From Escherichia phage JLBYU43: a stretch of DNA of 64,000 nucleotides. Position 1 is the stretch's first letter, and the number at the start of each line of letters is the position of its first letter. The notes beneath the pieces are model-generated. The model had not been told where the DNA came from. It searched no databases and saw only the letters and a program-made list of their open reading frames with translations. Positions 59,674 through 64,000 of this stretch are shown in pieces. The stretch lies in sequence record NC_105512.1; one strand, 5' to 3'. The position numbers and the translations under genes are program-made.

Positions 59674-61431
59674 TTAGGTAAGGCGTTGAACTGTTACTCT
59701 TAATCTAGGTAGGAAAACCGCACTACCTAAACTTACGTGCATAACTACCCCTAACTCTACATTCCCATTTCCTAGATTTTTAACTGTATATATGAAACTA
59801 TTCCTACTTAGTGCGTTATTAGGTGTGTATCTAAATGCAGATGTAGTATGAAATGGTACTAAGTAACCTACAGGTAGCGTTAAAATCTGGTGGAATATTG
59901 CATCTCCATTACTATAGCTATAAGCCCTTCTTCCCTGCACCTGAAATACACCGTTATTCCATGTATTAGCCGGAACACCTGCACAGTTAAGATTACCAGA
60001 TATAACTTCAGTAGTAAGAATAACAGTAGCATTACCTCCTGGAATTCCTAGTCCAATAGTAGATAGAGCCACGTATCTATCTCCAGTTCCGGGGTAGTAA
60101 GGAGTAATATCATCTCCCATGTAAGAACTACCAACATTTCCACTAAAAAGTCTCAGAGGAACTGAAGAAGGTCCCCAAACAACACCATGTTCGTTACCAA
60201 TAGTATTATTACTTGAGTTTACGTACCATTGCTTACCAGCTCCGAATTTGTAAATACTAATTTGAGACTTAGCCCCTCCATAGTCTACAGGAGACCATAA
60301 ACTCCCGTTACTAGAACCTACAAGTTCGCACCTTGCGGTGGTATCTCCAAAGGCTCCAGTGTACGCTGCGTTATTTCCGACGTATTCCATATCTGGCCTA
60401 TAACCTAAGTTACCAAAAGCATTCTGGTTAATAAACTTATACCCAGTATTAGGAAGACTAACCCCTTTTATAGTAAAATTAGAGGGTGAGATAAGAATAT
60501 CTGAACCAGTAAAAGGATTACCAGAGATACCCATATTACCATTAGAATACCTCAGATTAAGTACATACCAAATAACCTTAGTAGGAGTTATGTTATACCA
60601 ATCCTGTAGTATTGTAGAATCACCAGATTGATTAGCTAAATTAGTTGTAGAACCCCTACAAACAAATCTGTTACCCCCATCGTGGTACATAGTATTTACA
60701 TTGCCAGGAAGACCTTGTCTTACCCCGCCATACCCACGTATGTTAGAGCTACAAACATAGAACCAATCGTGTCCTCTGTGTGCTGATCCTAAAGGAGACA
60801 TCCATCCCGGGTCCCAGTAATATTGGTTATTACCATCTATAGGTACTGTACTACTATTAGTAGGAAAACCCAACTGTGCAAAAGCTTTTGCAACAGTAAT
60901 ACCTACTGGAGCTTCTGCACCTGGCCTAACTATACCATGATAAGTACTATGTAGGGTAGTTCCCCCAGTACCATTTCTAGAGATAGATTCTTCATGCCCT
61001 ATAGATGGGTTATAGTTATATGTTCCAGATGCCAGGCTATTACCAAATGCAAATCCACTAGTTTGGGAAACGCTAGCAAAAGATCTAAAAGGATCTGCTT
61101 GAGTGGCAACTATAGTTTGACCAACTTTACTCTGAGTACCATTAAGAAAAGCTCTGTGAGTACCATTTATCTCAATAGCAGTTAGTATAACTCTACCAGG
61201 ATCGTTAGATTTAATATTTATTATGTCAGCGGGCATTTGACATACAAAAAACCCATTACCGGCATCACCTAATCCAGACTCATAAGTACCATCAACTAGG
61301 ACGAAAGGCATATCGGAGTGGAAGATACTATTAGTATTTGGAGAATAGTGCTCACCAGTATCACCACCATTAGCAGCGTTTAGAGATAATACAGTTTTAC
61401 CATCACTAAATTTTCCTGCGAAAAAACTCAT
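59674..61431 (-). CDS. receptor-binding tail protein (pb5-like, 585 aa)
   Basis: N-terminus MSFFAGK; divergent orientation to llp; RBS AAGGAGA. Confidence 0.7.
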
Positions 61432-61455
61432 ACAATCTCCTTCTTTAAAAATGTA

Positions 61456-61484
61456 TTTGCTTAGATCCCTCTATTTTGCTATAA
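61456..61484 (+). promoter_or_regulatory. promoter for llp
   Basis: TTGCTT-17-TATAAT. Confidence 0.6.
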
Positions 61485-61514
61485 TATATTTATAAATTAA
61501 ACAGAGGAACGATT

Positions 61515-61781
61515 ATGAAAAAGTTACTAGCTATCGTAGTTGCAGCAGTAGTGTTGACTGGTTGTGTACCAGCTCCCGAGCCATTCTGTAAGGCATACGT
61601 GAAGTCTTATGGACATGTTGGTGAAGAACACTACGCTTTAGATATTCGAGAAGCACGTACTGTGGGCTACCGATTCCCTAAAACTCAGTTACGCACTAAG
61701 TTTGGGTGGTGGGATTTGTCACAGTTTGATCTCAAATATGGTGATTGCAAATTTAAACTAGAACAATCTGGTCACTTGTAA
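61515..61781 (+). CDS. llp: Llp-like lipoprotein (superinfection exclusion)
   Basis: signal peptide with lipobox LTGC; RBS GAGGAA; divergent from RBP gene. Confidence 0.7.
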   Translation: MKKLLAIVVAAVVLTGCVPAPEPFCKAYVKSYGHVGEEHYALDIREARTVGYRFPKTQLRTKFGWWDLSQFDLKYGDCKFKLEQSGHL

Positions 61782-62110
61782 TTAGTATAAAGTAAAAAGA
61801 TCTCGAAGTAAACAAAAATTTTTATTTCTGGGATGAGGTACAGGTAGCAAACACAATGCAAGATGAAGAAAAGTCCTTTCAGGAACCTGTTAACTTTGAA
61901 ATAAATCCCAGGAATAAAAAGCAATACATGATGCAATTGATGAAATCATTCAAGACGTCATAGAAGATACAGTAGAAGACGTGATGGGAACATCCTTCTT
62001 ACTAGAAGAATCCGGCTTCGACGAAGTAATGGATCTAATCGGGACAGTCGTAATGGTTCGTGCAATTGCTAGGGTATTCCAAATACCAGGACTACAGGAG
62101 AAGCAAAGAG

Positions 62111-62650
62111 ATGTCAGACGATAATAGAAGAAGGCAAGAGGAATTAAAAAGACTCTATGACTATAATCCAGAGACGGGAATTTTTATCCAGAAAACTACA
62201 CGTGGAGGTAAAATAGCAGGTAGTATTGCTGGATCACTCCACTCTAGTGGGTATATACATATAAGGTTTGAGGGCAAGCCTCAGAAAGCACATAGATTAG
62301 CCTTCCTATTTATGGAAGGATATATCCCAGAAGAAGTTGATCATATAAATAGAGTACGTAATGATAATAGATGGACTAACTTAAAAGAATCCTCCAGGTC
62401 TGAAAACAATAGTAATGTAAAACGTAAAAACAAATCTGGATATTCAGGAGTTCACTGGAATAAGAGAGATTTAGGATGGCAAGTCACCATTAGGAAAAAG
62501 GGAATTAGTTATTCAAATGGATTTTTTGAATACTCTGAACTACCACAAGCGGTTGAAGCTGCTAATAAACTTAGGTTAGATTTATATGGCAAATCAGCTC
62601 TGATAGAAGAATTCGACGGAAAGTTACCAAGTATTGAGGATTTAGTATGA
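62111..62650 (+). CDS. HNH homing endonuclease with AP2-like domain
   Basis: ATG 62111 with RBS AGGAGAA; VDHINR...NRWTNL. Confidence 0.7.
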   Translation: MSDDNRRRQEELKRLYDYNPETGIFIQKTTRGGKIAGSIAGSLHSSGYIHIRFEGKPQKAHRLAFLFMEGYIPEEVDHINRVRNDNRWTNLKESSRSENNSNVKRKNKSGYSGVHWNKRDLGWQVTIRKKGISYSNGFFEYSELPQAVEAANKLRLDLYGKSALIEEFDGKLPSIEDLV

Positions 62651-62751
62651 AAAAGGTAATAGATGCGTGGATAAATAGTTTCGGATTCGGAACTGTATTA
62701 TTCTTTATCTTTGTACTCTTTTGGTTAGCAGCTATGGCGGGGTGGATTTAA
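62647..62751 (+). CDS. tiny membrane protein 1 (34 aa)
   Basis: ATGA overlap with HNH stop; hydrophobic FGFGTVLFFIFVLFWLAAMAGW. Confidence 0.35.
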   Translation: MKKVIDAWINSFGFGTVLFFIFVLFWLAAMAGWI

Positions 62752-62906
62752 TGGAATGGGTAATTATTGGCATATTCGTCTTATTGATACTTCTCTTTGT
62801 AGGCTTACGTGTAATAGATACCTCTGTAACCCAAACAGAAATTAAATTAATGCAGTTGAGCAATAGATTATCTAGAATTGAAACTTTATTAGAGGAGCGT
62901 AAATAA
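62751..62906 (+). CDS. tiny membrane protein 2 (51 aa)
   Basis: TAATG overlap; RBS GGGGTGGA; MEWVIIGIFVLLILLFVGL...RIETLLEERK. Confidence 0.45.
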   Translation: MEWVIIGIFVLLILLFVGLRVIDTSVTQTEIKLMQLSNRLSRIETLLEERK

Positions 62907-63013
62907 TGGAATGGGTAATTATTGCACTACTGGGGATTGTGATTATTGGGCAGTGTATTCTAGATAATCACTTAGCTAGAATTGAAACCTTACTATCGGA
63001 GAAACGTAAATGA
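62906..63013 (+). CDS. tiny membrane protein 3 (35 aa)
   Basis: TAATG overlap; first 19 nt identical to protein 2; RIETLLSEKRK. Confidence 0.4.
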   Translation: MEWVIIALLGIVIIGQCILDNHLARIETLLSEKRK

Positions 63014-63204
63014 TGGAAGTGGCAATTACACTAATGGTAATATTAGTCTGGGTAATCCTCATTGTCTCTCGTATCGTGTATCTCCGCCTAAAAACTCTAG
63101 AAGCCCAGGTAAAACAACAACAAGTTATTCTAGAAAAGCTAGTACTACTGCAACGTTGTGATAGCACCCGTATTCTGCAAATTGAGAGGGAATTAGATGT
63201 TTAG
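63013..63204 (+). CDS. tiny membrane protein 4 (63 aa)
   Basis: TGATG overlap; MEVAITLMVILVWVILIV then coiled charged tail. Confidence 0.45.
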   Translation: MEVAITLMVILVWVILIVSRIVYLRLKTLEAQVKQQQVILEKLVLLQRCDSTRILQIERELDV

Positions 63205-63421
63205 TATTGTAATTGCTTTTATTATCGGGATACTCGCGGGAGTTTTCGGGACGACTGCGGCAATTAACAAGCATCGTAAATATATTGCGGGAGTGTCGCG
63301 GGAAATTGCGGAAAGGGAGCGGAAGTTTGATGAGAAACGTGCGGAGTTTGAGCGAGAATGGTCGGATGGATCTCGGGCGTCGCGGAGGAGATTTAGGGCA
63401 AAGGTGAGCGATGAAGAATAA
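63197..63421 (+). CDS. tiny membrane protein 5 (74 aa), GC-rich codons
   Basis: RBS GAGAGGGAA; FSIVIAFIIGILAGVF then Arg/Glu-rich tail; gcg/cgg/ggg codons atypical for this genome. Confidence 0.45.
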   Translation: MFSIVIAFIIGILAGVFGTTAAINKHRKYIAGVSREIAERERKFDEKRAEFEREWSDGSRASRRRFRAKVSDEE

Positions 63422-63947
63422 CTTAAGTATACAGGACATAGAAGAAGCATTTGCTTATGATCCCGAAACTGGAGTTTTCACCTGGAAAAGCGGCAATCGT
63501 AAGGATAAAGAAGCAGGTACTTTAAATAGGGGGTATAGGCAGCTTAAATATCGAGGATTTAAAGCTTATGCACATCAAGTAGCTTTTGTTATTATGGAAA
63601 ATAGGTGGCCAGAGGAATGTGTAGACCATATAGATAGGAATAAGCTAAATAATAGGTGGTCAAATCTGCGAGAAGCTACAATTACGGAAAATAATCGTAA
63701 CGGTAGAACCTCAAAAACATCCTCAGGCTACCTAAATGTTACGTGGCATAAGGGACTTCAGAAATGGATGGTAAGATTACATGATAAGCATGGACTTATA
63801 AATGGTACTACTAAGTATTTTTCCTATGACAGATTGGAAGACGCAGTAAATTATGCGAATTTACTAAGAAAGAAATTTCATGGCAGCTTTGCAGTACAAG
63901 AGGCATTCAAAGGGAATATACCAGATGTTGTTCAGTTAAACAGTTAA
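63411..63947 (+). CDS. HNH homing endonuclease with AP2-like domain
   Basis: RBS AAAGGTGAG; VDHIDRNKLNNRWSNL; C-terminal half similar to 20707-21240. Confidence 0.7.
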   Translation: MKNNLSIQDIEEAFAYDPETGVFTWKSGNRKDKEAGTLNRGYRQLKYRGFKAYAHQVAFVIMENRWPEECVDHIDRNKLNNRWSNLREATITENNRNGRTSKTSSGYLNVTWHKGLQKWMVRLHDKHGLINGTTKYFSYDRLEDAVNYANLLRKKFHGSFAVQEAFKGNIPDVVQLNS

Positions 63948-64000
63948 TTAGCACTAAAATGACTTTTGCCAAATTCTTTGGATTACGTACGCGTGGGTGG

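Follow-up and report, generated by a model that had tools for sequence, protein, structure and literature searches.

An array of overlapping genes for small, putative membrane proteins beside the llp gene of T5-like phages

The 64,000 nucleotides of Escherichia phage JLBYU43 that are analyzed here (sequence record NC_105512.1; hereafter "the window") form the right-hand part of the unique region of a T5-like phage genome (Tequintavirus). Near the right end of the window, downstream of a gene of the llp type, which encodes a receptor-blocking lipoprotein, there is a series of five extremely small open reading frames (ORFs) with a gene for an HNH endonuclease (HNH1 and HNH2) at either end. An earlier note on this DNA had described five such ORFs, of 34, 51, 35, 63 and 74 amino acids, as a coupled array of membrane-protein genes; all of them are found, all on the plus strand and with these lengths:

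62647-62751, plus strand: ORF1, 34 amino acids; orthologue of T5.159/orf1; phrog_8596 (E = 4e-18, profile positions 12-42 only)
62751-62906, plus strand: ORF2, 51 amino acids; accessory paralogue of ORF3; phrog_6369 (E = 1.5e-16)
62906-63013, plus strand: ORF3, 35 amino acids; orthologue of T5.160/orf2; phrog_6369 (E = 3.8e-26)
63013-63204, plus strand: ORF4, 63 amino acids (64 from an alternative ATG at 63010); orthologue of T5.161/orf3; phrog_5851 (E = 1.9e-30)
63197-63421, plus strand: ORF5, 74 amino acids; orthologue of T5.162/orf4; phrog_6447, "membrane protein" (E = 5.9e-44)

We consider it very probable that these genes constitute a conserved, co-expressed and dispensable operon of micro-proteins with a single transmembrane helix each. 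The conservation is apparent from a comparison of 27 loci: that of the window, three from GenBank records and 23 from IMG/VR contigs. None of these loci lacks ORF1, ORF3 or ORF5; ORF4 is an optional member of the family, found in 20 and missing from seven, and ORF2 occurs in four. The pooled ratios of nonsynonymous to synonymous polymorphism (pN/pS) for ORF1 to ORF5 are 0.19, 0.19, 0.25, 0.44 and 0.40, and the third codon positions vary most. In the alignment of ORF5 homologues no insertion or deletion in the tail of the protein shifts the frame (7, 11 and 17 residues are deleted in variants, and 4 are inserted once), and the exact length of its charged helical tail seems not to be critical. 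All five proteins have PHROG matches, with E = 4e-18 to 6e-44. A 2-kb query around the array matches 435 phage records, mostly of Salmonella and Escherichia T5-like phages, and by blastn the array itself is in 443 phage records, a figure that equals the number of records whose terminase gene shares at least 80% identity with that of the window; among 463 more distant relatives (phages of Vibrio, Klebsiella, Proteus and others) blastn found no DNA match to it. Such a distribution, in 443 records and in the 27 loci, is beyond that of chance ORFs, and at the level of sequence the comparison shows the five ORFs to be genuine protein-coding genes.

Relatives of the array proteins were detected in this group of phages only. 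A word-indexed search of 5.8 billion proteins with ORF4 and ORF5 recovered only T5-like phage proteins: 245 protein clusters for ORF4, and for ORF5 81 clusters, all at least 67% identical. An exhaustive profile search of 1.84 billion representatives with ORF5 gave five clusters, all of the same T5-like family. The array is absent, by blastn, from 5,426 complete E. coli genomes, and hence it is not a prophage moron.

These genes are not new to the databases. In the annotation of T5 itself (AY543070) the genes T5.159 to T5.162, each noted as "contains single transmembrane domain," lie between llp (T5.158) and the right terminal repeat, and the same block appears as orf1 to orf4 in the deposit that contains the llp sequence (X75922), available since 1994. 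The PHROGs assigned to T5.159-162 are 8596, 6369, 5851 and 6447, as in the window (PMC11879866, supplementary file 8). The array is thus the already catalogued T5 block plus one duplicated copy, ORF2. The genes are orthologues with 75-94% amino-acid identity, and their order, strand, overlapping junctions and position are the same. The window differs from T5 in three respects: the additional paralogue of ORF3 (ORF2); an HNH gene in the 5' end of ORF1, which has 34 amino acids as opposed to 42; and a second HNH gene that replaces the tail of ORF5, which has 74 amino acids as opposed to 81. In the literature that we searched there was no mention of T5.159-162 in running text, and both the paper on the structure of Llp and that on the BF23 genome are silent on the ORFs downstream. 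The T5 early region holds further runs of small ORFs with one or two annotated transmembrane domains (e.g., T5.020-021 and T5.027-031), and the present locus is therefore not alone in having a string of tiny membrane-protein genes.

As the earlier note had it, successive genes overlap at their start and stop codons: HNH1 and ORF1 by ATGA, ORF1 and ORF2 by TAATG, ORF2 and ORF3 again by TAATG, and ORF3 and ORF4 by ATGATG (TGATG if the conserved second ATG is taken as the start). To this list can be added an 8-nt overlap of ORF4 and ORF5 (ATGTTTAG) and one of 11 nt between ORF5 and HNH2. Each start is preceded, at a distance of 6-12 nt, by a Shine-Dalgarno-like sequence (GAGGA, GGGGTGGA, GAGGAG, GGAGA and GAGAGGGA, respectively). 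Their place is within the final codons of the gene before, and a part of each "charged tail" (e.g., EERK or EKRK) thereby doubles as the ribosome-binding site of the next gene. Both the overlaps and the upstream Shine-Dalgarno sequences are kept in 26 of the 27 loci, the exception being a premature stop in ORF4. The translational coupling that had been claimed from the junctions fits this conservation and the Shine-Dalgarno sequence that each gene has of its own, and it is best described as likely. The genes are presumably carried on one mRNA, on the same strand as llp, and with a single mRNA, start/stop overlaps and individual Shine-Dalgarno sequences their products would be made together.

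Each of the five proteins has, as had been proposed, one strongly hydrophobic segment: over 17 residues the summed Hessa dG ranges from -1.75 to -4.94, as compared to +7.65 for an HNH control. The description of every ORF as a hydrophobic start followed by a charged tail applies to four of them. It does not apply to ORF1, whose N-terminus is polar and basic, whose transmembrane segment is C-terminal (residues 18-34, dG -2.87) and which has no charged tail. In the others an N-terminal transmembrane helix is followed by an amphipathic tail (ORF2), by a short helix with the end ARIETLLSEKRK (ORF3), by a helix of ~40 residues with a leucine/isoleucine-rich pattern (ORF4) or by a highly charged Glu/Arg/Lys helix (ORF5). 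AlphaFold2 models ORF4 as a single helix from residue 2 to 63 and ORF5 as one from 2 to 73, with predicted local distance difference test scores of 94 and 73, respectively. The lysines and arginines that flank the hydrophobic segment are on its C-terminal side only in ORF2 to ORF5 and on its N-terminal side only in ORF1. By the positive-inside rule, this bias predicts that ORF2 to ORF5 are oriented N-out/C-in, with cytoplasmic helical tails, and that ORF1 is N-in/C-out; for all five proteins the topology is a prediction from sequence.

The expression of the array can be followed in phage Bas33 (HildyBeyeler), which has the same five genes and for which RNA-seq counts at 20 min after infection have been published (PMC13250531, Dataset S1). 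If its four count columns are read, as we do, as two control and two daunorubicin replicates, the control values in transcripts per million are 219 and 127 for llp, 162 and 137 for ORF2, 462 and 408 for ORF4, 22 and 13 for ORF5, and 525 and 444 for the downstream HNH gene. With daunorubicin, which stops the infection once the first-step transfer is over, all of these values are close to zero. This loss of signal indicates that the region is transcribed only after the second step of transfer, with ORF2 and ORF4 at levels similar to that of llp. The llp promoter is the sole promoter annotated on the array strand in X75922 and AY543070. Within the window there is no terminator-like site between llp and the array; a terminator-like hairpin inside ORF1 (62675-62696) is at chance level (one found, 1.3 expected). 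Promoter scans gave results below or near the shuffle expectation, and a candidate promoter upstream of T5.159 is not conserved in the window. As to the requirement for these genes, T5.159, T5.160, T5.161, T5.162 and llp were all scored "Not Fit" in a CRISPRi-ART screen of T5, that is, their knock-down caused no loss of phage fitness on the laboratory host (PMC11879866, supplementary file 16 and Fig. 6a).

The earlier note had deduced from the resemblance of ORF2 and ORF3 that the array grew by tandem duplication. For this pair the deduction is sound. The identical 19-nt 5' end (21 nt if the preceding TA is included) and the common RIETLL motif are both there, BLASTP aligns the two proteins with E = 3e-7 (19 identities in 51 columns), both belong to phrog_6369, and a 30-nt block at their 3' ends is 83% identical. 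ORF2 is 16 residues longer, and the alignment places the extra residues in two gaps, of 3 and 14. For the rest of the array the claim finds no support: profile comparison by hhalign gives a 42% probability over 8 columns for ORF3 and ORF4, and 0.5% for ORF4 and ORF5, which amounts to no detectable relationship in either case. An array composed only of duplicates is not borne out, there being no detectable profile-profile similarity among the ORF3, ORF4 and ORF5 families. A 35-nt junction unit that is common to the starts of ORF2, ORF3 and ORF4 (71-77% identical) is suggestive, at most, of a common origin for these starts. ORF2 always sits between ORF1 and ORF3. It was detected by tblastn in 33 records, all at least 90% identical, and 52 of the 443 records cover at least 80% of the array by blastn; ORF2 is thus present in ~7-12% of records.

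The same note had set the array between two HNH endonuclease genes. Both are present, and they belong to phrog_99:

62111-62650, plus strand: HNH homing endonuclease 1 (E = 2.2e-56), its boundary defined by alignment with the endonuclease-free ORF1 of loci L017 and L025
63411-63947, plus strand: HNH homing endonuclease 2 (E = 3.6e-52), inserted at codon 66/67 of ORF5

They are not, however, the native frame of the array. HNH genes are found in a minority of the loci, with sharp boundaries inside ORF1 and ORF5, and both are, to judge from these boundaries, selfish later insertions that have clipped the two genes; the two endonucleases are 37% identical to each other. Homologues of ORF1 without the truncation have 42-63 amino acids and begin with MS(D/N)..RK.RRGEVY. 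In the window and in phage Tennessee, HNH1, which is inserted in frame, took the ribosome-binding site, the start codon and the first seven codons (MSDDNRR) of ORF1; ~27 nt of the gene were replaced, and the remainder restarts as MKKVIDAW via the ATGA overlap. The new MKK N-terminus retains the positive charge on the N-terminal side of the helix. At the other end, ORF5 homologues have 81 amino acids, and their tail beyond residue 66 varies with what lies downstream: EFRPEHRFDDPSMR or MSESGDKPVDRRSS where there is no endonuclease gene, AKVSDEE where HNH2 follows, and IDGKS where the HNH gene is of another type. HNH2 is found neither in T5 nor in most of the loci; in other phages its place is taken by HNH genes of other types. 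Each of the two insertions has re-created a start/stop overlap with the array gene that it interrupts, and that gene is still an intact reading frame. Codon 66/67 of ORF5, next to the boundary of the terminal repeat, is a hotspot (63392-63947 in the window), where at least three types of HNH gene and two native tails can be found (loci L002, L005, L010, L011, L016, L018, L020 and L026).

ORF5 had also been singled out for its GC-rich codons, from which a separate origin was suspected. The composition is indeed unusual: its GC content is 0.48 and that of its third codon positions (GC3) 0.47 in a window of GC 0.39, and it exceeds in GC3 each of the 43 long ORFs of the window (mean 0.30, maximum 0.39). 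A separate origin is another matter. All 26 ORF5 homologues compared have a high GC3 (mean 0.49), and a feature common to the whole family is not explained by recent foreign acquisition; a foreign origin of ORF5 was hence rejected, the unusual codons being conserved family-wide. The high GC3 is accounted for by an array of short motifs made up of position-conserved GCG, CGG and TCG codons:

63236-63385, plus strand: GCGG motif array (consensus ~TBGCGGRAR) of eight motifs, inside ORF5

The motifs begin at 63236, 63257, 63287, 63298, 63308, 63319, 63341 and 63382. Eight GCGG in 225 nt, with none on the minus strand, is the single maximum in the 64 kb, for which the mean is 0.27. In ORF5, GCG is used for six of nine alanines, CGG for four of 11 arginines and TCG for three of six serines, as compared to 8%, 1% and 2% of the respective codons in the long ORFs of the window. 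The motifs stand in two codon phases, their positions are conserved in the 26 T5-like homologues, and across the family their number is eight or nine. Their spacings (21, 30, 11, 10, 11, 22 and 41 nt) are near multiples of 10.5, as would be expected of motifs on one face of the DNA helix but equally of a protein helix with its 3.5-residue periodicity. Two antisense frames in ORF5 are open in 23-27 of the 27 loci; an antisense gene was rejected, since a purine-rich sense strand accounts for the openness and the variation is patterned as expected for the sense frame.

The surroundings of the array in the window are as follows:

59674-61431, minus strand: gene for a pb5-type receptor-binding protein, upstream of the array and divergent from the llp-type gene
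61515-61781, plus strand: llp-type lipoprotein gene (receptor blocking/superinfection exclusion); phrog_1119, "Cor superinfection exclusion protein" (E = 1.2e-23)
61856-62124, plus strand: remnant of a gene of ~100 amino acids between llp and the array, recognized by alignment with phage Tennessee and locus L025
63948-64000, strand not assigned: final 53 nt of the unique region, base 64000 being the last before the terminal direct repeat

The llp-type gene, the product of which has a lipobox-type N-terminus (MKKLLAIVVAAVVLTGC), heads the rightward unit that contains the array. Its syntenic counterparts in ECOP18 and Bas33 are annotated as "receptor blocking protein" or "superinfection exclusion protein," and the lipoprotein Llp is known to bind the receptor at the outer membrane (PMC9586334). 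Phage Tennessee and L025 have an intact copy, of 100-104 amino acids, of the gene between llp and the array; in the window and in L017 a 2-nt indel breaks it into ORFs of 35 and 47 amino acids, and the split gene is either a pseudogene or a sequencing error. In ECOP18 the sequence identical to the end of the window runs directly into GTCCACTGCCTCCGG..., the left end of the T5 genome and of its terminal repeat. The end of the window is therefore the left edge of the terminal repeat, and the window is the 3' end of a genome record with a collapsed repeat. In T5-like phages of the Escherichia/Salmonella type the array occupies the right end of the unique region, with llp on one side and the terminal repeat on the other. 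At the syntenic site of a distant relative, the Klebsiella phage vB_Kpn24-P2 (locus L029, 4688-5370), there are two adjacent genes for proteins of 74 and 151 amino acids, each with an N-terminal transmembrane helix and then a coiled coil. This pair lies between the gene for the receptor-binding protein and a dmp-like gene, with no lipoprotein gene there, and has no detectable homology to ORF4 or ORF5. It hints that the class of gene found at this position predates detectable sequence similarity.

As to the function of the operon, the reading that we favour, if tentatively, is that the array products are an accessory envelope module of the inner membrane that is co-expressed with Llp and complements it. 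They would assemble in the cytoplasmic membrane of the infected cell and would add to the receptor blocker of the outer membrane, for example by preventing the entry of a superinfecting phage's DNA, or membrane damage, at the inner membrane; on a permissive laboratory host the module would be dispensable. The constant adjacency and co-orientation of the array with llp argue for this reading, as do the nonhomologous transmembrane-plus-coil genes of the distant Klebsiella phage at the same position beside the receptor-binding gene. The variable gene content (no ORF4 in seven of the 27 loci, ORF2 in four) and the "Not Fit" scores point to an accessory role.

Small inner-membrane proteins with proven superinfection-exclusion phenotypes exist in other phages, such as Imm and Sp of T4, whose role would be analogous, and gp15 of HK97. 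The array proteins resemble them as small, membrane-anchored, nonessential phage proteins expressed during infection; they differ in that exclusion is proven for Imm, Sp and gp15, which would be functional analogues only; no homology was found, nor was a search aimed at it made. To Llp and Cor the array is linked by position: llp is the gene next to it, has the same strand and is probably transcribed together with it, and llp is likewise dispensable in the T5 screen; but there is no sequence relationship, and the five ORFs lack a lipobox and have predicted inner-membrane helices.

A number of observations weigh against the idea of an inner-membrane partner of Llp. What may tie the array to exclusion is its gene neighbourhood only, and in the 27 loci the array variants do not track the type of llp, so that any function would not be receptor-specific. 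T5 DNA entry is not known to involve an inner-membrane host factor that the array proteins could block. None of the five proteins has a match above the curated thresholds of Pfam, NCBIfam or PADLOC, the PDB sequences gave no convincing match (best E = 0.049), and we found no homology of the array proteins to any characterized protein. As for co-expression, the Bas33 library was not strand-specific, and ORF1 and ORF3 (of these two genes, one is 108 nt long and the other 129 nt) were almost devoid of reads, a probable consequence of a read length, 150 nt, that exceeds that of the genes.

It is also possible, though we regard it with some doubt, that the micro-proteins are host-takeover or anti-defence factors that modulate inner-membrane proteins of the host by helix-helix contacts and by their cytoplasmic tails; possible targets are envelope regulators of the FtsH/LapB type, components of the divisome or membrane-acting abortive-infection effectors. 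The array is dispensable on a defence-poor K-12 host, and a variable gene content is typical of accessory counter-defence loci. ORF5 gives a score against the Pfam model LapA_dom (PF06305) of 21.0 bits for the protein of the window and 22.5 bits for the T5-type protein of 81 amino acids (E = 1.1e-4), and none of eight segment-preserving shuffles of ORF5 reproduced the match. Weaker matches are to ZapG/YhcB-like proteins (PF06295) and to FtsL, and all three models describe, like ORF5, one transmembrane helix followed by a cytoplasmic, coiled-coil-type helix. These scores are nonetheless below the respective cut-offs (22.5 versus 28 bits for LapA_dom, 16.4 versus 33.5 for the ZapG-like model and 16.2 versus 50 for FtsL), and what is shared is one helix; membership of ORF5 in LapA_dom was rejected, the gathering threshold of 28 bits not being reached. 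Moreover, PADLOC gave none of the five proteins a match at E <= 1, and the sequences are highly conserved across phages whose hosts have very different defence repertoires.

A more elaborate proposal, which we consider unlikely, has the micro-proteins form one hetero-oligomeric inner-membrane complex that would stop channel formation or DNA entry by superinfecting T5-like phages, whatever their receptor, with a cis-acting GCGG element in ORF5, beside the terminal-repeat boundary, in addition. In this picture T5 "lytic conversion" would have two halves: the complex at the inner membrane and, at the outer, Llp, which jams the receptor.

A part in the timing of lysis, with the array products as antiholin-like or holin-accessory partners of the T5 holin, seems more unlikely still. 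Among lysis regulators, small proteins with a single transmembrane helix are typical; the T5 holin is of the T4 t family (phrog_860), the T4 member of which is controlled by small accessory proteins, and the syntenic Klebsiella proteins weakly match Rz-like spanin and holin PHROGs (E = 0.004-0.09). But the array is ~90 kb from the lysis genes T5.040/041 (lys/C1) and the spanin-like T5.044/045, none of the five window proteins matches a lysis PHROG at E <= 0.1, and in the screen the holin C1 is "Fit" and the array genes are not. Rz-type i-spanins likewise have an N-terminal transmembrane helix and then a coiled-coil-like helix; the array tails, of 16-57 residues, are in contrast too short for the periplasm and are predicted to be cytoplasmic. 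Membership in this class was rejected on the lack of a lysis PHROG and on the predicted C-in topology of ORF2 to ORF5, and also on the nature of the neighbouring lipoprotein, which is a receptor blocker of the Llp/Cor type and not an o-spanin partner. T5 has its lysis genes elsewhere (the T4-t-type holin, an endolysin and the PseT.2/PseT.3-like spanin genes T5.044/045), and the array is thus not needed to complete a lysis cassette.

It is very improbable, in our estimation, that the ORF5 region is selected mainly as a cis-acting element, be it a site for packaging and end formation or an RNA element, with the peptide secondary. Such an element would agree with a phased array of GCGG on one strand, conserved in position, that falls in two codon phases and draws on codons of low frequency elsewhere in the window (1-8%). 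Synonymous sites within the motifs vary less than the others (mean minor-allele frequency 0.039 versus 0.152; one-sided Mann-Whitney p = 0.03, n = 7 versus 36). The motif array of T5 stops ~100 nt short of the terminal repeat, throughout which GCGG is 3- to 4-fold enriched (5.9/kb on the plus and 3.6/kb on the minus strand, as compared to 1.3/kb elsewhere); the GC content of the repeat is nearly that of the remainder (40.0% versus 38.6%). Against this stand the purifying selection on the ORF5 protein, with its pN/pS of 0.40 and most of the variation in third positions, and the fact that every indel is in frame. In addition, the HNH insertions shift the array ~540 nt farther from the edge of the repeat with viability retained, the ~10.5-nt spacing could simply reflect the periodicity of a protein helix, Tandem Repeats Finder detects no repeat in ORF5, and ORF1 to ORF4 are left unaddressed. 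A T5 nick site was considered and rejected: the T5 record gives Pu-pGCGC as the consensus, and GCGC does not occur in ORF5. An Rfam scan of 61400-64000 gave nothing meaningful.

That the products are virion or tail-assembly proteins is scarcely credible, for all that the array is close to the receptor-binding protein gene and that ECOP18, GEC_vB_N3, SP15 and several UniRef entries label ORF3 homologues "tail fiber protein" and ORF4 homologues "tail assembly protein": the late structural operon is on the opposite strand to the array, which shares its orientation with the early gene llp, the array genes are dispensable, proteins of 35-64 amino acids with a transmembrane helix are implausible as tail components, and the labels, which have no stated basis where other records have "hypothetical" or "membrane protein," are probably propagated mis-annotations.

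The array was already known as a set of annotated genes, and the present findings leave the current understanding of these phages unchanged. What they add is a dissection of the two endonuclease insertions, a bound on how far the duplication claim extends, a record of where the optional ORF2 and ORF4 occur, and the GCGG array that explains the GC-rich codons of ORF5. The array is a small, dispensable and tightly defined cassette which can easily be deleted or expressed, and many T5-like phages of this type are under development for the biocontrol of Salmonella and E. coli. If it were indeed an inner-membrane exclusion or counter-defence module, this would give a function to four or five genes of the Escherichia/Salmonella T5-like phages and would place a second layer on the well-studied Llp system.

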